A DNA stretch of 64,000 nucleotides, from positions 758-64,757 of the IMG/VR virus record IMGVR_UViG_3300031920_000373; one strand, written 5' to 3'. Of the stretch, positions 1-44,974 are shown piece after piece. The position numbers and the translations under genes were made by a program. Within the stretch, counting starts at the first letter, position 1. Every line of letters starts with the position of its first letter. A model generated the notes under the pieces. It was not told the origin of the DNA, did no database searches, and saw only the letters and a list, made by a program, of their open reading frames with translations. The stretch is from a virus.

Positions 1-1311
1 GGCAGAGGGGAAGATACGCGGTATCCACTTCTTAGTTTTCGTGATAACATCCCCCAATTCTGTTGTCGCCTCTCGTAAGAGGAGTCCTTTATAGTCAATT
101 CCATGTCCCATTCCCACTTCTTGTAAATAATCCATTATAAGAACATCTGTATTATGGGTTACTATAAAATCCTTTGTAATAAACAATCTATTGGGATTAT
201 TTACAAGAATACATATTGTTTTCTTTTTATCCTTAAGTTTATTAATTGAAGTGACTGTTCTTACAAGTCTGCCATGCACAAAATTTTTATTGTAGACCCT
301 TGCTTTTTTCCTTTTTAATCGAAAAAGATCAACTTTATTTGGAAATTGAATATACAGTTCATATGCTGTTTTTCCCTCTTTAATTTCCTCTTTGTATGTG
401 TATCTTGGAAAAATTTCTGAAATTGTGCCCCATCCCCCCAAACTCAATACAAGGGCTCTAACATCCCTCACTAATTGCTTACTTACTGAAGTATAAAAAC
501 AAGATCCATCTTTTCCCGCGTATCCATCCGTATCCATCAAACCTTGTAAAAGAGCTTTTCTTTCCTCTATGGTGCCTCTTAACAATCTAAGAGGTATAAA
601 CTTAGTATGAGAATAGGTGCCCCTTAATCCTAATTTATTTATTTGTTCTGCTATATCTGAATTAGTGGAAAAAGAACACTCATCAGTATATCCTTTATAA
701 GAATGAAGAACTGCTCCTTTTCCCATAAGATGATCAATTATTTCTTTATCTCCAGATGTTATCCTTGTCTCTGCTTTAGACACATTGCCATCACCAAGAA
801 TCAGTCCTATTATATATGCATCGAATTTGCTTTTCCAATTCTGTTGATACTTAATAGGATCAGGGCAGGGGATTAAAGGACGTTTATCCGGATATTTTTG
901 TATTAACTTATATAAATCCTCTGTTCTATGAATACTTCCATAAAAATTCAAAGGAGTGAATTTTCTAATAGTATCTCCTTTAATTCTATTTGCAATTTTT
1001 GCAAACCATAAATGATCTTCATCACAGTCTATTGAAGCACCATCAGAAAAAGATAACCTATACATTTGCTGTTTACTTCTATCAAATGTTTGAATAACAG
1101 ATTGAGATGTTCCATCAGGATTTGAAATTACTGATCCTGTTTTTAATTCTCCAATAGTGGTCCACCCTCTTGGCGTCAGTACTTTTTCTTCTGGAAGTAA
1201 ACCTTTGCCCCCGCCTCTGTTTCCGTGCAAAAGGGTCTCCCACACAGGGCAGGACATAAATCTATTTTGGGATCCGGGATAAGGACTCCATATCTCTTTA
1301 CGATCAACCAT
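1..1311 (-). CDS. terL: Terminase large subunit (5' part, runs off the window edge), intein-containing
   Basis: Manual translation from ATG at 1311: MVDRKEIWSPYPGSQNRFMSCPVWETLLHGNRGGGK|intein|TDVLIMDYLQEVGMGHGIDYKGLLLREATTEL. Walker A GNRGGGKT is restored after splicing. Lies downstream of terS. Absent from the ORF track because it is open-ended. Confidence 0.92.
   Translation of the reverse strand, partial: MVDRKEIWSPYPGSQNRFMSCPVWETLLHGNRGGGKGLLPEEKVLTPRGWTTIGELKTGSVISNPDGTSQSVIQTFDRSKQQMYRLSFSDGASIDCDEDHLWFAKIANRIKGDTIRKFTPLNFYGSIHRTEDLYKLIQKYPDKRPLIPCPDPIKYQQNWKSKFDAYIIGLILGDGNVSKAETRITSGDKEIIDHLMGKGAVLHSYKGYTDECSFSTNSDIAEQINKLGLRGTYSHTKFIPLRLLRGTIEERKALLQGLMDTDGYAGKDGSCFYTSVSKQLVRDVRALVLSLGGWGTISEIFPRYTYKEEIKEGKTAYELYIQFPNKVDLFRLKRKKARVYNKNFVHGRLVRTVTSINKLKDKKKTICILVNNPNRLFITKDFIVTHNTDVLIMDYLQEVGMGHGIDYKGLLLREATTELGDVITKTKKWIPRIFPSA
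151..1203 (-). mobile_element. Class 3 intein with LAGLIDADG homing endonuclease in TerL Walker A (351 aa)
   Basis: Starts GLLPEEKVLTPRGW; block B DCDEDHLW; LAGLIDADG motifs YIIGLILGDG and LLQGLMDTDG; block F/G TICILVNNPNRLFITKDFIVTHN followed by +1 Thr. Confidence 0.9.
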
Positions 1312-1804
1312 ACATTCTATCCTCACGCACTACTCCACAGAAATTCTTTTTCCGGGGAACGTCCAATTCAATTATATTATTCAGTTTATCAGTTCCTACC
1401 AGTTTGCTGAACATCTTCTTCCTTTCCTCAGGAGTGTGTGTGTACCATTCTTTCTTACGGCCCGCTCCTCGTTTGGCAAGAATCCTTTCTCTTTCCTCTC
1501 CTTCAAGAGATAGTTGATACTGCCTTGATAGATATTGTCTATATTTCTTTTCTTCCCTGCCCTCATCCGTCTCAAAGAACCTCTTCCTTCCTATTGACTG
1601 ACGGAGATATTTTAACTCTGCATCCTCTTCTTTCCTCTGAGCATAGAATATTTTCATACTGGCAGATATCTTGTCAGAATAAGCCTTTTTCTCTGCTTCC
1701 GTACGTGTCCTGTGCCACATACTCTGGTTGGGATGAGATCCCTTCTTGCCCTTGTCTATTCTGACTTTTTTAATGGGAATTTTCTTTAGAAAGGAAAATA
1801 GCAT
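1304..1804 (-). CDS. Basic K/R-rich protein with NUMOD3-like motifs, between terS and terL
   Basis: ORF track, overlapping terL start by 8 bp; HTPEERKKMFSK and RTEAEKKAYSDKISASMK resemble NUMOD3 repeats. Confidence 0.55.
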   Translation of the reverse strand: MLFSFLKKIPIKKVRIDKGKKGSHPNQSMWHRTRTEAEKKAYSDKISASMKIFYAQRKEEDAELKYLRQSIGRKRFFETDEGREEKKYRQYLSRQYQLSLEGEERERILAKRGAGRKKEWYTHTPEERKKMFSKLVGTDKLNNIIELDVPRKKNFCGVVREDRMYG

Positions 1805-33825: not shown

Positions 33826-34938
33826 ATGAAAGCATCCATAACTAATGTAATAAAATTTGAGACCGCTCACCAGTTGACTGACTCTTACTCTGAGGAAGAT
33901 AATACCTATACTTGCCCTGTGTGTAATAAGGAAGGAATAAAAAGCATATTTTCTCATTGCAGTAATACAGGTGATAGTGTTCATTTAAACTGGATACAAA
34001 AATTAAACGATGAAATAAATGAAGAAATTGACAATCTTTTTCCTGATTATATGCAAATGGAAATAAATTTGAAATTGCAGGAGATTTTACCCACCCTGTC
34101 TCCTAATATTATTGCAAATAAGATCAGAAGCAGAGCAAAGGAAACAGGTATAAATACCAGAAAAGTATTAGGGAAATGTAGAACTGGGTTAAATAATCCT
34201 GTACATACGAAAGGAACAAAGGATAAAATATCTAAATCAGTCAAGAAGAAGTGGGAAGAAGGTTCTTATTCAGATAGAATAAATGGAATGCAAGGGAAAT
34301 TAGGGCCTTTATCAGGAAGATACGATCCATCAATTCATACCATAGAACATAAAGGTCTATATTATTTTAATTCTTTTTTATCTGAATTTCAAGATATTTC
34401 AGTGTGTTCAAGATGTAAGGGTGTTGAAAATAAAATTAATGTACACCACATTGACGAGGACCATAAAAACTTTCTACCGTCAAATCTTGAGCCCTTGTGT
34501 GTGCTCTGTCATATGTCCAATCACTACAAACAAGTTAAGAAGCCATTCGTTACTATAGGAAAAGAATTTACATTTGCGGCGGCACATCAATTACCAAACC
34601 ACCAAGGGATGTGTCAATATCTCCATGGACATGAATGGAAGCTTAGAATTGAGTTGAAAAAGAGGGTAGATTTTAAAACAGGAATGGTAATGGACTTTTC
34701 TGATTTGAAAAAAATAGTGAAGGAGCATGTAATATCTATACTTGATCATAACACCTTAAATGAGATAATATATAATCCGACAGCCGAGAATATCCTAATA
34801 TGGATCTGGGAAAAACTAATGTTTGAAGGCCTGCTCAAGGGAATTTATAAAATTCATTTATGGGAATCATCCGATAGTGTAGCAGTACTTGACCAGAAAG
34901 GGATGTTATCCGTTTTTACTGAAAAAGGAGTAAAATAA
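33826..34938 (+). CDS. queD: QueD (6-carboxy-tetrahydropterin synthase) fused C-terminal to an HNH endonuclease
   Basis: FTFAAAHQLPNHQGMCQYLHGHEW, VMDFSDLK, LDHNTLN, NPTAEN, LWES; HNH CSRC...VHHIDEDHKNFLPSNLEPLCVLCH. Confidence 0.9.
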   Translation: MKASITNVIKFETAHQLTDSYSEEDNTYTCPVCNKEGIKSIFSHCSNTGDSVHLNWIQKLNDEINEEIDNLFPDYMQMEINLKLQEILPTLSPNIIANKIRSRAKETGINTRKVLGKCRTGLNNPVHTKGTKDKISKSVKKKWEEGSYSDRINGMQGKLGPLSGRYDPSIHTIEHKGLYYFNSFLSEFQDISVCSRCKGVENKINVHHIDEDHKNFLPSNLEPLCVLCHMSNHYKQVKKPFVTIGKEFTFAAAHQLPNHQGMCQYLHGHEWKLRIELKKRVDFKTGMVMDFSDLKKIVKEHVISILDHNTLNEIIYNPTAENILIWIWEKLMFEGLLKGIYKIHLWESSDSVAVLDQKGMLSVFTEKGVK

Positions 34939-35597
34939 TGTTTGTAGCTGATATATTTGAATCATTCCACGGAGAAGTGAATGGACATCACCAAGGACGA
35001 ATTGTCACATTCATACGCCTCTCTGGATGTAATCTTAGATGTTCCTATTGTGATACCAAAGAAACATGGGATAAACTTTATGGGGAAAATCTTAGCCCTC
35101 TTCTAATCCTTAACAGAGTTAAAGAATTAGGACATAAACACGTTTGTATTACAGGTGGCGAGCCTTTACTGGATAAGGCGGCAGTACTGGATTTAATGCA
35201 TATATTATCAGAGGAAGGGTATCGCATATCCGTTGAAACAAATGGCACTATCAGTATCACTCCTTTTGTTAGATTTGTGGATAGCTTTATTATTGATTGG
35301 AAAATACCCCCCAGACCGTTTAAAGGAAAGAATCTATTCCTTGAATCTAATTTGGTAAATTTAAGGAATACAGATATTATCAAGTTTGTGGTTATGGATG
35401 AAGATGATGTTATACTGGGAATAAAACTAACGGAAATAATTATCAGAGACAAATATAAATCAAATACTCTGGTTGCTTTTTCTCCTATTATTTCAGAAGA
35501 TTTTTTACCAAAGCACTTAGCAAACGCATTGCTTTACCATAAAGCTAAAAACTGTATTTTATCTGTCCAGATTCATAAACTTATTGATTTCAAATAA
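34938..35597 (+). CDS. queE: QueE radical SAM 7-carboxy-7-deazaguanine synthase
   Basis: IFESFHGE, FIRLSGCNLRCSYCDT, ITGGEPLL, VETNGT, SVQIHKLI. Confidence 0.93.
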   Translation: MFVADIFESFHGEVNGHHQGRIVTFIRLSGCNLRCSYCDTKETWDKLYGENLSPLLILNRVKELGHKHVCITGGEPLLDKAAVLDLMHILSEEGYRISVETNGTISITPFVRFVDSFIIDWKIPPRPFKGKNLFLESNLVNLRNTDIIKFVVMDEDDVILGIKLTEIIIRDKYKSNTLVAFSPIISEDFLPKHLANALLYHKAKNCILSVQIHKLIDFK

Positions 35598-35636
35598 TGG
35601 TCCTGTGCAACATGCCGATATTACACGGATTTAATC

Positions 35637-35690
35637 TTAATGATTTTTTATTAAAAAGTGCTTGACTTCTCATTCATTTTTCATTAAGAT
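35637..35690 (+). promoter_or_regulatory. Class II promoter with upstream palindrome
   Basis: TTAATGA-TTTT-TTATTAA, 7 bp, TTGACT-N17-TAAGAT. Confidence 0.75.
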
Positions 35691-35760
35691 GTATTTAAAT
35701 TGTTCAAGAGTGAAAAAGCAGTTCAAGAGTAAATTTAATTAATTTTTAAGGAGAAAGAAA

Positions 35761-36330
35761 ATGGCAAAACTGACAGACGCCCAGAAAGCAGAAATGGCAA
35801 AATTAAAAGCGATTCCCAATGATTTGATGAAATTATCCATTGCATCCCTCAATACCTTCTTGACCAGCAAGGAAAAAGACAAAATGCCCAAAGCAAAATC
35901 CAAGGGCGAAGCCGTAAAACTTTTTACCGATGCAATTGCAGGCCTGCTTGAAGCTGACCTGGGTGAAGAAATTCCGGAAGATGTTGCAACTTTTTATAAC
36001 GACCATGTTGTGGGTGACGATGCAGAGGCTGGTGATACAGGTGCTGATGATGGAAAAGCCGCCCCCAAGCCCAAAGCTGACAAGACCAAAACAACCAAAC
36101 CCCGGAAAACCAAAGCGGAAATACAAGCCCGGTATGATGCAATCTCTGCCATGATCGTCACAGGTAAACATACCAAAAAGGAAATCGTGGATGAAGTTGC
36201 TCCCAAGTTTCCGGATGTCACGGTCAGCACCATCTCCACATTTGTGCAGGACTGTATGAATGTTAAATACAACAAATTGCCCAAGTTGACGGTTAAGGCC
36301 GAAGACGGAAAACTCTCCTTCGCCAAATAG
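35761..36330 (+). CDS. Lys/Ala-rich protein with C-terminal winged-helix-like domain; paralog of 6500..7009
   Basis: AAGGAG SD; shared T.KE...FP....ST.ST...D..NVKY pattern. Confidence 0.75.
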   Translation: MAKLTDAQKAEMAKLKAIPNDLMKLSIASLNTFLTSKEKDKMPKAKSKGEAVKLFTDAIAGLLEADLGEEIPEDVATFYNDHVVGDDAEAGDTGADDGKAAPKPKADKTKTTKPRKTKAEIQARYDAISAMIVTGKHTKKEIVDEVAPKFPDVTVSTISTFVQDCMNVKYNKLPKLTVKAEDGKLSFAK

Positions 36331-36363
36331 TCCTGCCCCTATGACATTTAATGAGTAACCCCG

Positions 36364-36410
36364 AAAAGGCGGAGCGTCCCTCAATTCCAACAGCTCCGCC
36401 TTTTTTATTT
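36364..36410 (+). terminator. Intrinsic (bidirectional-type) terminator just upstream of queC
   Basis: AAAAGGCGGAGC-N17-GCTCCGCC-TTTTTTATTT. Confidence 0.75.
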
Positions 36411-36425
36411 CAAAAGGAAAACGAT

Positions 36426-37100
36426 ATGAATGGAGCCGTTGTATTGTTAAGTGGAGGACAAGATTCTACCACGTCATTATTTTGGGCTTTGTCCAAATAT
36501 GATGACGTTTTTGCCTTGATTCTTGACTATGGACAGAGGCACAGGATAGAAATAGAATCAGCAAAGAAAATTGCTGAATTGGCTGGTGTCGAGTATATGG
36601 TAATTGACCTTAACTTCTTTAAAGAAATAGGCAACTCTGCCTTGATTGGGGATGTATCAGAAGTAAATGAACCGCATTCCTGTGATTCAAATCTGCCCGC
36701 ATCATTTGTCCCTGGAAGAAATCTGATTTTTATCACTATCGCCTCTATGGTAGCATATAAGAGAGGACTGAACGCTGTTGTTACTGGTGTTTGCCAAACA
36801 GATTATTCGGGATATCCTGATTGCAGGAACGCCACAATGAGGGCATTAAATGAGGCAATCGTGAAGGGCTTGGATAAAGCTATCTTGATCAGTACACCTT
36901 TGATGTGGTTGACAAAAGAGGAAACTGTCAGACTGGCTCAGTCATTTGAAGGCTGTATGGAAGCTCTGGCATATTCTCATACTTGTTATAATGGAGAGTA
37001 TCCTCCCTGTATGCATTGTCCCTCATGCTGTTTAAGGACAAGAGGATTCAAAGAAGCAGGTGTAAGGGATCCACTGATTGTGAGGTACTATGATAAGTAG
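36426..37100 (+). CDS. queC: QueC 7-cyano-7-deazaguanine (preQ0) synthase
   Basis: LSGGQDSTT, DYGQRH, FVPGRN, SGYPDCR, TPLMWLTK, CYNG...CMHCPSC; start refined. Confidence 0.95.
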   Translation: MNGAVVLLSGGQDSTTSLFWALSKYDDVFALILDYGQRHRIEIESAKKIAELAGVEYMVIDLNFFKEIGNSALIGDVSEVNEPHSCDSNLPASFVPGRNLIFITIASMVAYKRGLNAVVTGVCQTDYSGYPDCRNATMRALNEAIVKGLDKAILISTPLMWLTKEETVRLAQSFEGCMEALAYSHTCYNGEYPPCMHCPSCCLRTRGFKEAGVRDPLIVRYYDK

Positions 37101-37701
37101 AAAATATCCAGGTGCCATTCTTGCCAATGCATCAAAGCATGACCGAATCAAAGCATTGGTACATGATCTTTTGGTGGAAATCAATGAAAATCCAAATAGA
37201 ACGGGATTGAAAGATACCCCTGAACGTGTTGCCAAAATGTACTCTGAAATATTCAGAGGATACGATGATTCACAGAAACCGAACCTTACTGTTTTTCCAA
37301 ATGACGATGATGGGCTTTCCTTCAAAGGTATGATAATTGATCAAGGATACTTTTTCAGTCATTGTGAGCATCATATGGTTCCCTTCTTTGGTCATTATTA
37401 CTTCGGATATATTCCCGATAAAACACTGATTGGCGCCTCAAAGATTGGTAGATTGATCAATTTCCATTCAGCCAAATTGCAGATAGCGGAGCGCCTGTGT
37501 CGTGTTGTGATAGATGACATTGAGGAGGCTGTGAAACCTCAGGGTTGTATTCTCATAATGACTGCCCGCCATTTGTGTAAAGAAATGAGAGGAGTCAAGA
37601 TGTTTAACAGCCCGTTTGAGGCGGACGATGCACGTGGTTGCTTCCTTGAAAATCATGCAGGATGTAAAGATGAATTTATTAGCAGAATAGGAATTAAATA
37701 A
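37090..37701 (+). CDS. folE: GTP cyclohydrolase I
   Basis: GLKDTPERVAKMY, SHCEHHMVPF, GASKIGR, LQIAERL, HLCKEMRGV. Confidence 0.95.
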   Translation: MISRKYPGAILANASKHDRIKALVHDLLVEINENPNRTGLKDTPERVAKMYSEIFRGYDDSQKPNLTVFPNDDDGLSFKGMIIDQGYFFSHCEHHMVPFFGHYYFGYIPDKTLIGASKIGRLINFHSAKLQIAERLCRVVIDDIEEAVKPQGCILIMTARHLCKEMRGVKMFNSPFEADDARGCFLENHAGCKDEFISRIGIK

Positions 37702-38166
37702 ATGAAACATAAACATCTTGGATCAAACAAAACGGACTATCAGTTCTCCGAGCCCTCGGCTGATCTTCTGGACACATTCAAAAACAAACACCCTAATATC
37801 TATCTGGTACCATTTGTTATGCCCCGGGATGAGTTCACAAGTCTTTGTCCCGTCACGAATCAGCCTGACCAGGCAAAGATTGAAATAATCTATGTGCCTT
37901 TCGATGATATGGTTGAAAGTAAGTCCTTGAAACTGTATCTTTTCTCCTTTAGAAATAACGGAGAGTTTCATGAGGATGTTATTAACAGAATAGCCAAGGA
38001 TCTGTATTCAGCAATGAAGCCCTTGTATATTCGTGTTTATGGTGACTTTGCTCCACGTGGGGGTATTGCAATCAAACCCATGGTTGAATTGTGGAATTCC
38101 AATGACCCTCATGATACAAAGCTGATTGAAAATTATGTGAAAATGTGGGACAGGAAAAGGAATTAA
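37702..38166 (+). CDS. queF: NADPH-dependent preQ0 reductase (short, type I)
   Basis: [13 protein letters not shown], QueF motif [19 protein letters not shown]. Confidence 0.92.
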
Positions 38167-38167
38167 T

Positions 38168-40081
38168 ATGAAAACTCCAGGCAGAGAAGATGTTTCTCTA
38201 ATGCTTGATTCCGGTGCTTTCTCTGCCTGGATGAAACAAGAGGAGATATCAGTCGAGGACTACGGTAAGTTCCTTCAGCAACATGGAAATGATTTTGATC
38301 TGATTGTTAACCTTGATGTAATTCCGGGCAAATTCGGGCAGAAGGAAATACCCGAAGCTGAAATGATCAAGTCCATTGAACAAGGCTGGAGAAATTATTA
38401 CAGACTAATTGAAATGGGAGTCCCTAAGAATAAGCTCCTTCATGTATTTCACCAAGGAGAGCCCTTTCACTATCTTGAAAAAATGGTAAAGGAGATGGAA
38501 TATATAGGAATCTCTCCTGCAAATGATAGAACCACAAAAGAAAAGAAAAAGTGGCTGGACGAGTGCATGAAATATATTGTGGATAGTAAGGGAAAAGCCC
38601 AAATCAAATTCCACGGGTTCGGTATGACTTCTTTGCACTTGATCTGGCGTTATCCTTGGTTCTGTATGACAGAAGAGGATCATGAGGTATTAACAAAAAC
38701 TGGATGGAAATTTAGAGAAGATTTATCCATAGGGGAGGAGGTATTAACATTCGATAAAGGAGCATCTAAGTGGGAACGTATTTTAGATATTCCTACATTT
38801 CCAGTAAAAGATATTGATATCAATGTAATGGAAAATAGAAACTTTTGTGCCAAAGTTACAGATAATCATAATTGGATTACTTGTCCTCAATATAATAGAG
38901 GAAATAATTGGAAGTGGAAAACAACACACACACTGAACTCCAATGATTGTATACCTAGAATAGGAAAATACACTTTCCCTGAAACTAAAATATATATGGA
39001 CAGTTTCATTGAATTATTGGCTTGGTTTTGGACTGATGGAACAATCAACAAAAGGGAAAAATATAATCAGGATAGTATTTCTATTTATCAATCTGAAAGT
39101 GCTAATTCCGATAAATGTAAGATGATCCAGGATTTGTTAAATTACAGTGGAGAACCGCATTGTAAAAGTGTGTCAAAAGAGGACAATTTAGCAAATTTTG
39201 AAATGTATGGAGACATTACTAAGGCTATATTAGAATTTGCTCCATTTAAAAAACTACCTTTAGATTTTATATTTGATCTTACTAAGGAACAGTTACAGAA
39301 ATTTGTAGATATTTGTGTCCTGGCTGATGGCACAGACACAAAACTGGTAAGACGTGATTCATTTAATATTACAGTTTCAAGACAGGTGAAAAAAGACAAT
39401 CTTGAGGTTCTCCGTATAGCTTGTTTATTGTTGGGTATACCTACTTCTATTTCTTATGGAAACCAAGGGTATAAGACTTTACAATCATCCTCAGTTGATT
39501 ATGTGTATAATCATTCACTTAAAAAACACAAGGAAAAATATACAGGAAATATATGGTGTTTACAGGTGCCAAGTAAAGCTTTTTTTACAAGATGTGACAA
39601 TAAGATATATGTCACAGGAAACTCAATTGACAGTACTACATGGGTTTTGGTTGGTGCTATGGGGGGTGTTATGATGCCTAAAATTAAGTATGGCAGATAC
39701 ACTTACAGGCAATCACCAATCATACTTCCCATCACCACAAAGAACGACATAAAAAAACCTTTCCATTATCAAAATCTATCAGAAATAGAACAAAGCAAGG
39801 TGCAACGATACTTTAATGATCGTGGCTTTGATGTCAAAACCCTGGAAACGGAAGGAATGGAGAGAGACAGAGCCAACATGAGGTTCTTTCTTGATCTTGA
39901 ACAAACCTTGACTGATACAAAGGTGTACTTTGCTGGTAACTTTCCCATGCTTCATAAGATGGAGAGAGAGTTCAAGACAATGGATTTGGCTTTAAAAATA
40001 ACTGATAAGTGGAGAAGGCTGGGCTCTTATTATCACCAGAACTATCTCCTTAAATTACTTGATCTAAAACGGAGGAAATAA
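38168..40081 (+). CDS. dpdA: DpdA-like DNA 7-deazaguanine transglycosylase (TGT fold), intein-containing
   Basis: LMLDSGAFSAW, NLDVIPG, HVFHQGE, FHGFG, RYPWF|intein|SIDSTTW; located in the que cluster. Confidence 0.85.
   Translation: MKTPGREDVSLMLDSGAFSAWMKQEEISVEDYGKFLQQHGNDFDLIVNLDVIPGKFGQKEIPEAEMIKSIEQGWRNYYRLIEMGVPKNKLLHVFHQGEPFHYLEKMVKEMEYIGISPANDRTTKEKKKWLDECMKYIVDSKGKAQIKFHGFGMTSLHLIWRYPWFCMTEEDHEVLTKTGWKFREDLSIGEEVLTFDKGASKWERILDIPTFPVKDIDINVMENRNFCAKVTDNHNWITCPQYNRGNNWKWKTTHTLNSNDCIPRIGKYTFPETKIYMDSFIELLAWFWTDGTINKREKYNQDSISIYQSESANSDKCKMIQDLLNYSGEPHCKSVSKEDNLANFEMYGDITKAILEFAPFKKLPLDFIFDLTKEQLQKFVDICVLADGTDTKLVRRDSFNITVSRQVKKDNLEVLRIACLLLGIPTSISYGNQGYKTLQSSSVDYVYNHSLKKHKEKYTGNIWCLQVPSKAFFTRCDNKIYVTGNSIDSTTWVLVGAMGGVMMPKIKYGRYTYRQSPIILPITTKNDIKKPFHYQNLSEIEQSKVQRYFNDRGFDVKTLETEGMERDRANMRFFLDLEQTLTDTKVYFAGNFPMLHKMEREFKTMDLALKITDKWRRLGSYYHQNYLLKLLDLKRRK
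38663..39622 (+). mobile_element. Intein with LAGLIDADG endonuclease in DpdA (320 aa)
   Basis: CMTEEDHEVLTKTGW; VTDNHNW; LLAWFWTDG and ICVLADG; IWCLQVPSKAFFTRCDNKIYVTGN followed by +1 Ser. Confidence 0.9.
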
Positions 40082-40263
40082 TGACTGAGGAAGAATTTAA
40101 ACTTTGGGCTACATTAAAAATCCTAAAACTCAGGGAAATGTTAGATTTTGATAATTCATTATTCACCACAACTGAATTAGATATGTTGTTCGCAATAAAG
40201 GAGCAACACAAAAATGAAGATAGGAAAAAAGAAAAAGGAAAAATCGTACAATTATTCCAATAA
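40081..40263 (+). CDS. Hypothetical protein
   Basis: TAATG coupling. Confidence 0.55.
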   Translation: MTEEEFKLWATLKILKLREMLDFDNSLFTTTELDMLFAIKEQHKNEDRKKEKGKIVQLFQ

Positions 40264-41296: not shown

Positions 41297-44200
41297 ATGG
41301 GATTTTTCACTAAATCCCAGTTATCTAAGCGGTCCGAGGTCAAGGTTGATGTCAATGACTTGGAATCGGATTGCTTGGCTTGTGGGTTATTCAAAGACAC
41401 AATCCATCCAAAGATGGAATACTCAGGACAAGGTCAAAAGAAGATTCTCATTATAGGTGAATTTTCAAGTGACGAAGATGACCAATATGGTCAACATTTC
41501 TATGGAGAACGAGGCGATCCATTAAGACAGCAATTAAGGTTCAATAATGTCAATATGAACAAGGATTGCTGGAAAGTTAACGCTGTTCGATGCAATCCTG
41601 ATGGACTTAATTTACCCAGTCCTGGCCAGGTTCAAAACTGCTTCCCGTATATCAAAAAAATGATCAAACAGTTAAAACCTAAATTGATACTTCTTCTGGG
41701 TGATTTGGCTATTTCTTCATTGTACGGAAAGGATTTTTCAAACAGAAGCATACACAGATGGAGAAAGTATGTTATACCCGATCAAGAGTTCAGTTGTAAT
41801 GTTATTCCTCTATATCATCCCTATCATCTTTTCCGTCAATCCAAGAAAAAGAAGAAGAAAGACAAAAACCTCGAAAGTGTATTCAATCGGGATCTAAAAT
41901 TTGCTCTCAGACAGTTGGAACGCCCGGTTTTAACGACAAAGAACTATGAAAGCAATGTCACACTGTTAACAGACTTCAACCGCGTTAAAAAGCTGTTAAA
42001 TCGAATCCTCAAGCGTAAATCAAAAATCTATTTTGATTATGAGTCCACAGGACTAAAGCCTTTCAGAAAAGGCCATAAGATTGTGACCATTGGTGTTGCT
42101 GTATCTGCCTCAAAAGCGTTTGCGTTTCCTTATCAGTGGAAAAGTTTCTGGACTCCCTCTGAATTAAAGGTTATAAAGAAACTCTGGAAAAAGATTCTCA
42201 GGGATGATGAAATCCTAAAGATGGCGCACAATTGCTTTTCAGGTGATACAAAATATATAACTAAAGAAGGATTGAAGTCCTTTATTGATACAGAGAACAC
42301 TACCCAAACAGTGTGGACAAAGGAAGGATGGAAGGATGCTAAAGTTAAATGTTATGGAAAAGATCATCTTTCTAAAATAGTAGTAGGCCCTGAACTTAGA
42401 AGTAGATCCAAGATTAAAAGAACTATTCACAGCACTGAAAATCACCGTTGGATTGTAAAAAGAAAATTCAATCATTGTTACCCTAATCCCTCTACCTTTA
42501 AAACTATAGAGGTTACCACAGACCAATTGAAATTAAGGGATAATATAATTTCGGAAATGCCCGAATTCACAATTGATCAAAATACAGAGGCTTTTAGACA
42601 TGGATTAATCCTTGCGGATGGAGGTCGTTCCAGTAAACATTCCCTTCATTTTCAAATCAGACTATGTGGTAAAAAAGAAAAGTATAAAGACATTTTTCCT
42701 AAATATACGTACCCCCTTTCTGCTAATGGTGATCCGGTTGTGAATTACTATAAAGCCTCTTGTGATATGAAGAAAGTTCCTGAGAATCCTACGGCAGAGT
42801 ATGTAGCAAACTTTATAGCAGGATGGGATGCTGGTGACGGCACAGATTCAGCAACTGGAAGATCAAGAGTCATAACTACCTTTAATAAAGAACACGCTAC
42901 ATGGTTAAAGGACAATGCAGAACTTGGTGGATGGAAATGTACTGGATTTTCAGAACATATTAATTCGAAAGACTTTGATGGGAATTATATAGACCCGCAC
43001 CCTTACTGGATGATAATATTAACAAAGGAGAAAGTAAACTGGACAGTAAAAGAAATAAAACACAAGGATAGATACGAGAAAGTGTACTGTGTTTCTTTAC
43101 CAAAAGAGGAATTTACTCTCCAATATGGTATTTACACAAGGAATTGCAAATTTGAGCAAGTGTGGTCAAAGGTTATGTTCAATGTAATGCCTAAGATTCA
43201 CTTTGATACTATGATGGCAGAACATATCTTGGACAATAGATCAGCCTCAACAGGTTTGAAATTTCAGACGTTCATAAGGTTCGGTGTTAAGCCCTATGAT
43301 AAAGATATTGCTCCCTTCCTAAAAGCAAAGAATGGAGAATTTAATACCATAGAAAAAGCACCATTCAAAGAGTTATTAACATACAATGGACTTGACTGCA
43401 TTTATGGATGGATGGTATACGATAGACAGATCCTTGAAATAACCAAAAGACGGGACGTAAAGGATGCAATGAAAAGCGTTCTCGGTGAGGTTGATGCTCC
43501 CGAAAAAAGCCTACTTGGTGCTTACAATTTCTTCATGCGTGGTAACGAACAGATGGCTATTATCCAGCTTAACGGGATCAATATGGATTCCATTTATTAT
43601 CAAAAAGCTGAAAAGAATCTGGAAAAGAAAGTCAAGGAGTTAAAGCACGGATTGGAGAATGGTCGTGAAGCGGAAATGTTTCATAAAATGTTCGGACGAC
43701 CAATCAGGATCACATCCAATCAAGATCTCGGAAAACTATTCTATGAAGTTCTGGGAAAAGATCCCGTCTATACTGCTAAAGGGGGGTATAAGACAGATAA
43801 AATGACTCTGGAGAGTTTGAATCTACCTTATGTAAAAAACCTCCTTAAAATGAAAAAGTACGAGAAAGCCAAGGGAACTTATCTTGGTCAGTTTGCAAGA
43901 GAGATATTTAGGACAAAGATGTATCCATTCTGGGATCTTAATATTCCTGTCAGTTATAGGAGTTCATCATCAAAACCAAACTTTCAGAATATTCCTAAAC
44001 GTGATGCAGAGATAAAGGCAATCATTAGAATGGGAATTGTTCCGAAAAAGGGATGTGTGTTAAGTGAAATTGATTTTTCAGGTGCGGAGGTTATAACTTC
44101 CGCCACTTACCACAAGGATCCAACATTTATTGCCTACTTGACAGAAAAAGATGCATCAGGTGAGTTGATAAATGATATGCATAGAGATAATGCAACTGAC

Positions 44201-44974
44201 CTTTTGATGTTACCTCCTGATATGCTTGAGAATCCTAAGTATTCAAGGGACCAGAAAAAGTTAATTAAAAAGATTCGATTCTTTGCCAAGAACAATTGGA
44301 CTTTTGCTCAGTTCTACGGTGATTGGTTTGGTTCGTGTGCTCCTATGTTCTGGGAGAATGTTATTGAGGTGGACTTAGAACTTCCTAATGGCATGACTTG
44401 CCGAGAATGGCTTGAAGAAAAAGGCATCTATGAACTCGGAGAAGTAAAAGATGGAACTCCCACAGAGGGAAGCTTCATGGAGCATTGTGCCCATGTCCAA
44501 GAAAAGATGTGGAATGAACGATTTCCTGTATATACTCAGTGGAAGAAGGATATAGTTGAGAAATATAGAGAACATGGTTTTATTCCCAATCATTTCGGTT
44601 TCAGATTCACAGGATATATGTCCGATAATCAGTGTACAAACTATCCCATCCAGTCAGCAAGTTTCCATCTGTTGGTTCATACTCTGATTGAGGTACAGAA
44701 GTTCATTGATAAAAATAACCTGAAAACAAAGATAGTTGGGCAAATTCATGATAGTATTATCAGCAATGTTCCTGAAAATGAGATCAAATTCTACCATGCA
44801 GGTGTTAACAAGATTGTAAAAGGCCTGATGAATGAATTTAAGTGGTTGATAATTCCAATGGAAATCGAAGCTGAAATAACCAAGTTAAGAGAAGATGGAG
44901 GAAACTTTTCTGACCTTAGAGAAGGTGACCCTGATAATATGGATTATGAAACAATCTGGAAGGAGGCAGCATGA
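41297..44974 (+). CDS. polA: Family A DNA polymerase with N-terminal uracil-DNA-glycosylase family 4-like domain, 3'-5' exonuclease and intein
   Basis: CLAC...IIGE...NAVRC...YHP (UDG4-like); YFDYESTGL, HN|CKFE, YNGLDC (exo I-III); PNFQNIP, EIDFSGAEV, AKNNWTFAQFYG, NYPIQS, QIHDS. Confidence 0.93.
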   Translation: MGFFTKSQLSKRSEVKVDVNDLESDCLACGLFKDTIHPKMEYSGQGQKKILIIGEFSSDEDDQYGQHFYGERGDPLRQQLRFNNVNMNKDCWKVNAVRCNPDGLNLPSPGQVQNCFPYIKKMIKQLKPKLILLLGDLAISSLYGKDFSNRSIHRWRKYVIPDQEFSCNVIPLYHPYHLFRQSKKKKKKDKNLESVFNRDLKFALRQLERPVLTTKNYESNVTLLTDFNRVKKLLNRILKRKSKIYFDYESTGLKPFRKGHKIVTIGVAVSASKAFAFPYQWKSFWTPSELKVIKKLWKKILRDDEILKMAHNCFSGDTKYITKEGLKSFIDTENTTQTVWTKEGWKDAKVKCYGKDHLSKIVVGPELRSRSKIKRTIHSTENHRWIVKRKFNHCYPNPSTFKTIEVTTDQLKLRDNIISEMPEFTIDQNTEAFRHGLILADGGRSSKHSLHFQIRLCGKKEKYKDIFPKYTYPLSANGDPVVNYYKASCDMKKVPENPTAEYVANFIAGWDAGDGTDSATGRSRVITTFNKEHATWLKDNAELGGWKCTGFSEHINSKDFDGNYIDPHPYWMIILTKEKVNWTVKEIKHKDRYEKVYCVSLPKEEFTLQYGIYTRNCKFEQVWSKVMFNVMPKIHFDTMMAEHILDNRSASTGLKFQTFIRFGVKPYDKDIAPFLKAKNGEFNTIEKAPFKELLTYNGLDCIYGWMVYDRQILEITKRRDVKDAMKSVLGEVDAPEKSLLGAYNFFMRGNEQMAIIQLNGINMDSIYYQKAEKNLEKKVKELKHGLENGREAEMFHKMFGRPIRITSNQDLGKLFYEVLGKDPVYTAKGGYKTDKMTLESLNLPYVKNLLKMKKYEKAKGTYLGQFAREIFRTKMYPFWDLNIPVSYRSSSSKPNFQNIPKRDAEIKAIIRMGIVPKKGCVLSEIDFSGAEVITSATYHKDPTFIAYLTEKDASGELINDMHRDNATDLLMLPPDMLENPKYSRDQKKLIKKIRFFAKNNWTFAQFYGDWFGSCAPMFWENVIEVDLELPNGMTCREWLEEKGIYELGEVKDGTPTEGSFMEHCAHVQEKMWNERFPVYTQWKKDIVEKYREHGFIPNHFGFRFTGYMSDNQCTNYPIQSASFHLLVHTLIEVQKFIDKNNLKTKIVGQIHDSIISNVPENEIKFYHAGVNKIVKGLMNEFKWLIIPMEIEAEITKLREDGGNFSDLREGDPDNMDYETIWKEAA
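42233..43144 (+). mobile_element. Intein with LAGLIDADG endonuclease in the polymerase Exo II motif (304 aa)
   Basis: CFSGDTKYIT; STENHRW; FRHGLILADG and IAGWDAGDG; KVYCVSLPKEEFTLQYGIYTRN followed by +1 Cys. Confidence 0.9.

Follow-up and report, generated by a model that had tools for sequence, protein, structure and literature searches.

The intein-bearing dpdA gene

The window analysed here is a stretch of 64,000 nucleotides (positions 758 to 64,757) of the viral record IMGVR_UViG_3300031920_000373, a 101-kb IMG/VR contig from marine sediment estimated to be 76% complete, and the subject of this work is an intein that interrupts its gene for a DpdA-like protein. The signature enzyme of DNA hypermodification with 7-deazaguanines is DpdA, a DNA-guanine transglycosylase that exchanges guanine for such a base; the modification serves phages as a defence against restriction. 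As listed in Table 1, the whole gene is one open reading frame (ORF) that encodes N-extein, intein and C-extein. A sequence-only reading of this DNA had described an intein of 320 residues, flanked by RYPWF and SIDSTTW, ending in Gly-Asn and followed by Ser, and translation bears out this description exactly: the insert is read without a stop from CMTEEDHE to YVTGN, RYPWF stands directly before it and SIDSTTW directly after it, with Gly as penultimate residue and Ser at position +1.

The insertion is precise and in frame. On the phrog_887 profile the exteins are contiguous, residues 10-165 of the precursor covering positions 57-204 and residue 486 onward resuming at position 205, and because both flanks run on contiguously in this manner, the 320 residues constitute a clean insertion. 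In 127 intein-free homologues (about 270-420 residues) the segment RYPW[YF]SVDS, reading ..W beyond, shows no break. Moreover, two loci form a natural pair: L018, a contig assembled from SRA data and related to the window, has the intein, L019 lacks it, and their DpdAs are 84% identical in amino acids and 75% in nucleotides; the spliced L018 gene and the empty L019 gene are each exactly 954 nt long, as expected for a precise insertion.

As for the phage itself, none of 50,697 phage records was matched by 6 kb of its DNA in megablast, and the C-terminal half of its PolA matches only T5-like polymerases, at ~24% identity, which yields no cultured relative and no host call. Among sequencing runs, its DNA is listed solely for those of a single marine-sediment sample, possibly its source, and no RNA run is listed for it.

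Table 1. The dpdA gene, its intein and other features discussed in the text, in window coordinates (a slash marks an intein-extein junction)
Feature	Position	Strand	Basis or remark
DpdA-like gene with intein	38168-40081	+	ORF, 637-aa precursor
DpdA N-extein, aa 1-165	38168..38662	+	phrog_887 E 1.4e-38; Asp14 and Phe18 (DSGAF), Asp50 (NLDVIP), His95 (VFHQGE)
Intein, 320 aa: predicted HINT splicing domain with inserted double-LAGLIDADG homing endonuclease	38663..39622	+	translation, homology, model
Block A Cys1, putative N-terminal nucleophile	38663..38665	+	81/81 DpdA inteins; 20/20 related inteins in other hosts
Block B T66-D-N-H69-N-W71 (Thr B:7, His B:10, Trp B:12)	38858..38875	+	alignment
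First LAGLIDADG motif LLAWFWTDGT, intein residues 118-127, acidic Asp125	39014..39043	+	Asp/Glu in 78/81; weak Pfam LAGLIDADG_3 match; I-DmoI structural match
Second LAGLIDADG motif FVDICVLADGT, intein residues 214-224, acidic Asp222	39302..39334	+	Asp in 79/81
Block F position 4, Cys299	39557..39559	+	invariant, 81/81
Block G Thr318-Gly319-Asn320 (Thr G:5, non-His G:6, Asn G:7)	39614..39622	+	Thr 80/81, Gly 81/81, Asn 81/81
DpdA C-extein, aa 486-637 plus stop	39623..40081	+	phrog_887 positions 205-284; Ser+1 39623-39625; predicted catalytic Asp488 39629-39631
queD with long N-terminal insert	33826-34938	+	Pfam PTPS
queE	34938-35597	+	Pfam Radical_SAM
ORF without assignment	35761-36330	+	
queC	36351-37100	+	Pfam QueC
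folE	37090-37701	+	Pfam GTP_cyclohydroI
queF	37702-38166	+	Pfam QueF
60-aa ORF	40081-40263		
PolA gene	41297-44974		
PolA intein, 304 aa	42233-43144	+	between MAHN and CKFEQ
Terminase ORF	1-1326		
Terminase (TerL) intein, 351 aa	151-1203	-	in Walker A motif (GNRGGGK/G...VTHN/T)

Host enzyme and catalytic aspartate

The exteins have a single family match, phrog_887, annotated as queuine tRNA-ribosyltransferase, and in tblastn the N-extein finds the DpdAs of phages 9g, Dp-1 and Iggy at 37-42% identity. Neither the Pfam model TGT (PF01702) nor the PADLOC Dpd models match the exteins or nine intein-free homologues. At the level of structure, the model of the intein-free homologue P0076 (pLDDT 81) has the TGT-type (beta/alpha)8 barrel; its best matches are ArcTGT 1iq8 (Z 13.6), the DpdA of Salmonella Montevideo 7ui4 (Z 13.2, root-mean-square deviation 4.3 over 245 residues), QTRT2 (Z 12.8) and bacterial TGT 3unt (Z 12.0), and the next unrelated fold follows at Z 8.1.

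In the TGT superfamily three active-site aspartates serve as general acid/base, in base recognition and as nucleophile. For the DpdA family these positions were located with profile A3, built from 53 sequences of which 43 are diverse relatives from prokaryote assemblies, whose best PDB sequence is 7ui4_A. The A3 alignment pairs Asp14, Phe18, Asp50, His95 and Asp488 of the window DpdA with Asp95, Phe99, Asp130, His181 and Asp256 of 7UI4 (numbered as the deposited chain less its 20-residue tag), which are the active-site residues named in the DpdA structure paper (PMC10164549). Asp14, Asp50 and Asp488 are the only aspartates invariant among the 53 relatives, which also share the Ser, Asp and Trp of S-x-D-S-x-x-W without exception; around the nucleophile the family reads Y-S-V-D-S-t-s-W and Salmonella T-S-I-D-S-T-T-P, so that SIDSTT of the window agrees with Salmonella over six residues. 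In S. Montevideo DpdA, guanine exchange is abolished by D95A and by D256A (PMC10164549). The proposal that the Asp two residues downstream of the intein is catalytic is therefore upheld by the alignment of Asp488 to Asp256, and since five functional residues coincide and the fold matches, we regard the assignment of Asp488 as the predicted DpdA nucleophile as sound. Expressed in terms of Salmonella DpdA, the intein lies between the equivalents of Thr253 and Ser254.

Other ways of reaching the same alignment were less productive. With the 22-sequence profile A1 nothing relevant was found among PDB sequences, when A1 or an alignment of 213 rows was set against E. coli Tgt with hhalign, the DSG motif alone could be aligned, at <1% probability, and single bacterial relatives gave no useful match to PDB sequences. 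No Cys is present in the C-extein, hence no structural Zn site is recognised there; two of the four Zn ligands were already known to be missing from phage 9g DpdA (PMC5699537). At the N-terminus only 13 residues precede DSGAF (38168-38209), a shortness common to the 66 intein-bearing homologues of set A2, and many intein-free relatives have 40-50 residues more. At the other end, the last 55 residues (39911-40078) are modelled at pLDDT 37-59.

Identity of the intein

Portal, terminase, DNA methylase, RDF/phosphoesterase, PolA and RNR genes are classic hosts of inteins. When the insert alone was used as a tblastn query, it aligned to 149 phage records with no less than 98% of its length covered (best E 4e-35), and all these matches lie inside genes of just these kinds. 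An AlphaFold2 model of the precursor, computed with 66 homologues, has a mean pLDDT of 85.8 and reaches ~97 over the insert. Its best Foldseek matches in the PDB are endonuclease-bearing inteins, TliVMA (7qsu, E 2e-13), PI-SceI and PI-PfuI, and after the solved inteins come LAGLIDADG enzymes of the I-DmoI type (I-DmoI itself matches at E 1e-7). The modelled fold of the insert is accordingly that of an endonuclease-bearing intein; with its two motifs, these structural matches and 81 homologues at the same site, the earlier identification of a LAGLIDADG intein holds.

The residues on which splicing and homing would depend were examined in an alignment of 81 DpdA inteins that have diverged to about 40% identity, with block positions taken from PMC2807308. 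Besides the positions given in Table 1, neither His69 nor Trp71 varies, Thr occupies position 66 in 68 copies and Ser does so in the other 13, Cys311 is kept in at least 90%, and the +1 residue is always Ser, Thr or Cys, mostly Ser or Thr. The retention of key residues among copies so far diverged argues for selection on both splicing and endonuclease activity. The penultimate His (G:6) that is usual in inteins is replaced by the invariant Gly319; since about 5% of functional inteins do without this His (PMC4031507), it is not strictly defining. Its lack had been pointed out from the sequence, correctly as an observation, but it is no peculiarity of this copy, being shared by all 81 and having a precedent (PMC5050341), and the Trp-Cys-Thr signature to which it belongs had escaped the sequence-only reading.

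The active site combines features of two intein classes. Position F:4 is the branch-point Cys of class 3 inteins and is usually Asp in class 1, and class 3 is defined by a triplet of Trp B:12, Cys F:4 and Thr G:5 (WCT; PMC2807308). The DpdA inteins possess this triplet (W71, C299, T318), and the 21 residues from Cys299 to the terminal Asn equal the spacing of Cys320 and Asn341 in the MP-Be DnaB intein and that in the Msm and Mle DnaB class 3 inteins. Inteins of class 3, however, lack Cys, Ser or Thr at position 1, and because the invariant Cys1 is kept, the DpdA intein is not filed as class 3. The combination of Cys1, T..H.W, W-C and T-G-N is found also in 20 related metagenomic inteins and in gp135 of Mycobacterium phage Pinkcreek, and is a trait of the lineage.

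The same phage carries two more inteins. That of PolA has Cys1, Trp B:12 (TENHRW), Cys F:4 (VYCVSL), Thr G:5 and a penultimate residue other than His (T-R-N/C). That of the terminase is a textbook class 3 intein with Gly1, DxxH-x-W, Cys F:4 (TICIL) and T-H-N. The Trp-Cys-Thr triplet is common to the DpdA, PolA and TerL inteins of the phage, and the DpdA intein has no significant similarity to the other two by BLAST or profile (the PolA-TerL pair lay outside this comparison).

Occurrence and an intein hotspot

Proteins were searched for this intein in two ways, by a word-indexed search over 5.8 billion proteins and by exhaustive HMMER over 1.84 billion cluster representatives. In total 81 metagenomic proteins (clusters at 90% identity) of 535-1117 residues carry an insert of 308-362 residues at exactly the window's site, hereafter site a, where the DpdA profile breaks at its position 193. 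The occupied allele is present on 13 IMG/VR contigs, which have in common the gene order queD, queE, sometimes queC, folE, dpdA, clamp, polA. Among 185,579 prokaryote species, each represented by one genome and prophages at large being beyond that scope, no site-a intein was found; 102 of these genomes encode intein-free relatives.

Two neighbouring sites, b and c, are also occupied. In the metagenomic DpdA P0074 (718 residues), an intein of 413 residues (158-570) stands directly after the Asp (SVD/S), three residues downstream of site a; it is a class 1 intein with Ser1, VYDLEV, Asp at F:4 and the end VHN/S, it matches the Pfam model Intein_splicing (PF14890) at E 1e-15, and it is unrelated to the site-a intein. 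The metagenomic DpdA P0129 (1117 residues) has the site-a intein at 299-634 plus a second one at about 646-1009, canonical in its sequence (CLTGGSL...VVHN/C), which starts 11 residues past the first and 8 residues after the Asp. As judged from these sequences, the S-x-D-S segment is an intein hotspot with three independent sites within 12 residues.

Long matches in Streptomyces and Paceibacterota loci were considered as further insertions and rejected, being tandem dpdA paralogues in different frames. Six loci from Streptomyces and from contigs of metagenome-assembled genomes (L085, L086, L094, L097, L078, L087) have a tandem pair of dpdA-like genes that differ in frame and are separated by ~400-900 bp.

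A literature search on inteins in DpdA or TGT found none, InBase being outside that search, in agreement with the sequence-only reading, which knew of no described DpdA intein site. A site already catalogued and common had been named there as grounds for refutation; it is common indeed (81 clusters, 13 IMG/VR contigs), and no catalogue entry was found. It is well supported that DpdA is a new intein host and a new site, widespread and apparently unreported. What does not follow is the sequence-only reading's suggestion that DpdA is essential enough to host an intein, as inteins track conserved DNA target sites and not essentiality.

The distribution of the intein was also compared with the phylogeny of its host. 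In a tree built from the exteins of 208 DpdAs, four intein-bearing DpdAs, the window's included, nest singly among intein-free lineages; the nearest relatives of the window extein are intein-free and 49-52% identical to it, and inteins 55-61% identical to the window's sit in exteins only about 39% identical to the window's. At each of the 13 IMG/VR loci the intein, with 40-58% identity, outscores both dpdA exteins (26-40%), in most of them it is the best conserved of the segments compared, and its GC content is 0.32 vs 0.39-0.41 for the exteins. By these comparisons the intein is more conserved in sequence than the gene that harbours it, and its carriers lie scattered among DpdA lineages that lack it, which points to occasional lateral invasion, presumably by homing, on top of vertical descent.

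Proposed mechanism and alternatives

In our opinion the insert is quite probably a genuine, active and mobile selfish intein of DpdA, whose splicing would restore the active site and would likely follow the class 1 route. The 637-residue precursor would be inactive, with its nucleophile strand parted from the rest of the barrel; after translation the intein would excise itself and join the exteins into a DpdA of 317 residues, which would then put preQ0 or preQ1, made by the products of the adjacent queD, queE, queC, folE and queF, into phage DNA. The class 1 route, favoured because Cys1 is invariant and block B has TxxH, would begin with an N-S acyl shift at Cys1 and transfer to Ser+1. Asn320 would then cyclise unaided by a penultimate His, and an O-N shift would follow, with the block F Cys and the block B Trp as active-site helpers. 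The endonuclease, on its part, would cut the intein-free dpdA of co-infecting relatives at the DNA for W-[YF]-S-x-D-S, upon which the intein would be copied in. Since the insert splits an active-site strand, it is a sound inference, as had been proposed, that DNA modification depends on splicing. A selfish passenger, which may persist since only its exact splicing restores a conserved active site, is a better reading of the intein than a regulator.

Several points weigh against this picture. We infer splicing, endonuclease activity and DpdA activity alike from the sequences. None of the intein models of Pfam and NCBIfam, Intein_splicing and Hint included, scores the insert or the whole protein, and the sole curated model that the insert matches, Pfam LAGLIDADG_3, does so below threshold (E 0.008); by its sequence the DpdA intein appears to be a divergent lineage which these curated models miss. 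As to its mobility, the presence of the intein changes state 6 times on the extein tree vs about 65 in label shuffles, which suggests mostly vertical inheritance, within two large clades, with no recent homing demonstrated. For the host enzyme, the match of profile A3 to 7ui4_A is marginal alone (E 0.037), the mapping of the Asp leaning on the five coinciding residues and the fold, and the short N-terminus and the poorly modelled C-terminal 55 residues bear on the completeness of the spliced barrel. Finally, an unvarying Cys in block F and Trp in block B are hallmarks of class 3, which leaves the class 1 route less than secure.

The last point leads to the alternative that survives best, which we nevertheless think unlikely, namely a class 3 route or a two-cysteine relay: Cys299 would attack the N-terminal junction or take the N-extein from Cys1, Cys1 being dispensable or only auxiliary, and the branched intermediate would pass to Ser+1. 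The invariant class 3 signature with Ser or Thr at +1 in most copies, the 21-residue spacing described above and the class 3 intein in the same phage's terminase speak for it; moreover, Ser+1 hampers the transfer from thioester to ester, which is a class 3 setting, and 3 of 37 WCT inteins do retain an N-terminal Ser or Cys (Tori et al. 2010, PMC2807308). However, a dispensable Cys1 should have drifted, the way position 1 has in genuine class 3 inteins, and here it is kept throughout the DpdA inteins and their relatives in other hosts at 40-60% identity. In addition, B:7 is Thr or Ser (TxxH) as in class 1, whereas Asp stands there in class 3 inteins such as Msm DnaBi1 and the phage's own TerL intein; a polyphyletic group of class 1 inteins with Cys F:4 is recognised (PMC3196547); and the related Bethlehem RDF intein was placed in class 1 by Kelley et al. 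(PMC5050341). The class 1 route is thus retained in the reading that we prefer.

It is rather improbable that the intein acts as a conditional switch, by which splicing, and hence DNA modification, would be held back under oxidising or other stress so as to gate or time the hypermodification. A reversible disulfide among Cys1, Cys299 and Cys311 might be its basis, and the conservation of all three (two of them invariant) accords with this. By way of precedent, a disulfide of the block F Cys in Msm DnaBi1 reversibly blocks splicing under H2O2 (PMC6195587), and the RDF intein showed disulfide-bonded precursor conformers (PMC5050341). Such support is by precedent, however, and the sequence data do not bear on conditional splicing. 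Most DpdA lineages, including the nearest extein relatives of the window's, are intein-free, so the pathway does not need this regulation; two unrelated ordinary class 1 inteins at neighbouring sites fit the targeting of conserved DNA better; and the related intein with a Gly-Asn end splices fast and completely.

A bolder combination of these ideas seems to us about as doubtful. In it, Cys1 together with WCT would mark a large phage-borne lineage, made up of this phage's DpdA and PolA inteins along with many from metagenomic giant proteins. The lineage would splice by a relay of two cysteines, from a thioester at Cys1 to the block F Cys and on to Ser+1, and would redox-gate the 7-deazaguanine modification. 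It belongs to the same doubtful proposal that the lineage would be either a surviving intermediate that gave rise to class 3 or a fourth variant of the mechanism.

A decayed, non-splicing intein, which would leave dpdA dead or functional only via cleavage products or the DpdA of a co-infecting phage, is very improbable: to the silence of the curated models and the absence of the penultimate His one may add a precursor model uncertain at residues 486-488 and the existence of inactive intein pseudogenes such as Arsp-FB24 Arth_1007 (PMC3196547), but the reading frame is open across 637 codons, the surrounding que genes are intact, the known catalytic positions are invariant in the 81 diverged copies with both acidic residues of the endonuclease kept, which requires purifying selection on splicing, and His B:10 and Cys F:4, which the dead Arthrobacter intein lacks, are both present.

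Neighbouring genes and significance

The genes for the 7-deazaguanine precursor (33826..38166, + strand) lie directly upstream of dpdA, in a synteny that recurs in the 13 IMG/VR loci, and queD, queE, queC, folE and queF are assigned by Pfam matches with E from 8e-16 to 4e-70. In the queD product, the PTPS domain occupies residues 244-356 of 370, with ~240 residues of other sequence before it. The PolA of the phage has an N-terminal domain of the UDG superfamily (Pfam PF03167, residues 45-192). Between dpdA and clamp, contig L018 has a 127-residue gene (L018:2382-2765) with a precomputed Pfam match to Acb2/Tad1-hairpin, a sponge fold of anti-CBASS/Thoeris proteins; at the corresponding position the window has only the 60-residue ORF of Table 1.

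The proteins in which inteins have been catalogued are mainly those of replication, repair and packaging. DpdA now joins these hosts, and the three sites within 12 residues independently mark S-x-D-S as the most constrained part of the enzyme. In practical terms, an intein-bearing DpdA of ~600 residues is called 'hypothetical', and because Pfam, NCBIfam and PADLOC all fail on it, whole lineages of phages will escape surveys for deazaguanine systems. Moreover, the endonuclease would have to locate its target where replacement of the genome's guanines may already have taken place, which makes the system a test of homing on hypermodified DNA, and the active site with Cys1 and Trp-Cys-Thr is a test case for the evolution of class 3 splicing. 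If the ordinary reading holds, what we describe is a well-documented new intein allele and not a new mechanism.

Comparison with known systems

Among characterised inteins the closest parallel is that in the RDF, a metallophosphoesterase, of mycobacteriophage Bethlehem (gp51 in Kelley et al. 2016, PMC5050341; gp52 in AY500153). It is a homologous LAGLIDADG intein of ~317 residues (profile E 1e-34, 24% identity over residues 9-320), and it shares with the DpdA intein Cys1, TxxH, Trp-Cys at F:3-F:4, the end L/V-T-G-N, a phage-borne setting and a position beside an invariant catalytic motif. It differs in its host protein and site and has Val at B:12, so that the W-C-T triplet is not complete; Bethlehem has an actinobacterial host, whereas the DpdA intein belongs to an uncultured marine-sediment phage. 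The Bethlehem intein splices to completion in vitro, though more slowly once His replaces its penultimate Gly (Gly316His), and the endonuclease that it carries is toxic in E. coli (PMC5050341). Because this Gly-Asn intein splices fully, the Gly-Asn end is no argument against activity of the DpdA intein, and if anything it is one in favour.

The nearest relatives outside DpdA (E 4e-35, and profile E 1e-50 to 1e-72) are the intein of Mycobacterium phage Pinkcreek gp135 and those of metagenomic giant multi-intein proteins, P0133, P0134 and P0146 among others. They bear the same signature of Cys1, T..H.W, W-C and T-G-N, in host proteins and at insertion sites that differ from DpdA's, and none of them is characterised. 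The class 3 inteins (MP-Be DnaB, Msm DnaBi1, Mch DnaB1, MP-Catera gp206) resemble the DpdA inteins in WCT, Ser or Thr at +1, the 21-residue spacing and the link to phages. In contrast to the DpdA inteins, with their invariant Cys1, Thr or Ser at B:7 and penultimate Gly, they have no N-terminal nucleophile and often Asp at B:7, and most of them keep the penultimate His (His340 in MP-Be). PI-SceI, TliVMA and PI-PfuI share the two-domain architecture (Foldseek E 2e-13 to 1e-10), yet at ~10% identity they are class 1 inteins with Asp F:4 and penultimate His, from archaeal or yeast hosts.

As for the host enzyme, the DpdA of S. enterica Montevideo (7UI4), the DNA preQ0 insertase of the Dpd system, has in common with the window DpdA the TGT-type barrel, the five active-site residues and SIDSTT. 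It carries no intein, it has a Zn site and large insertions, it needs the DpdB ATPase, and it serves a restriction-modification system, whereas the window DpdA has a C-extein without Cys, a very short N-terminus and no dpdB nearby. The DpdAs of Enterobacteria phage 9g, Streptococcus phage Dp-1 and Pseudomonas phage Iggy have a role in anti-restriction DNA modification and are likewise encoded beside folE, queD, queE and queC, the queF of the window being as in clusters of the preQ1 type. None of these three carries an intein, and no intein is mentioned by Hutinet et al. 2019 or Cui et al. 2023.

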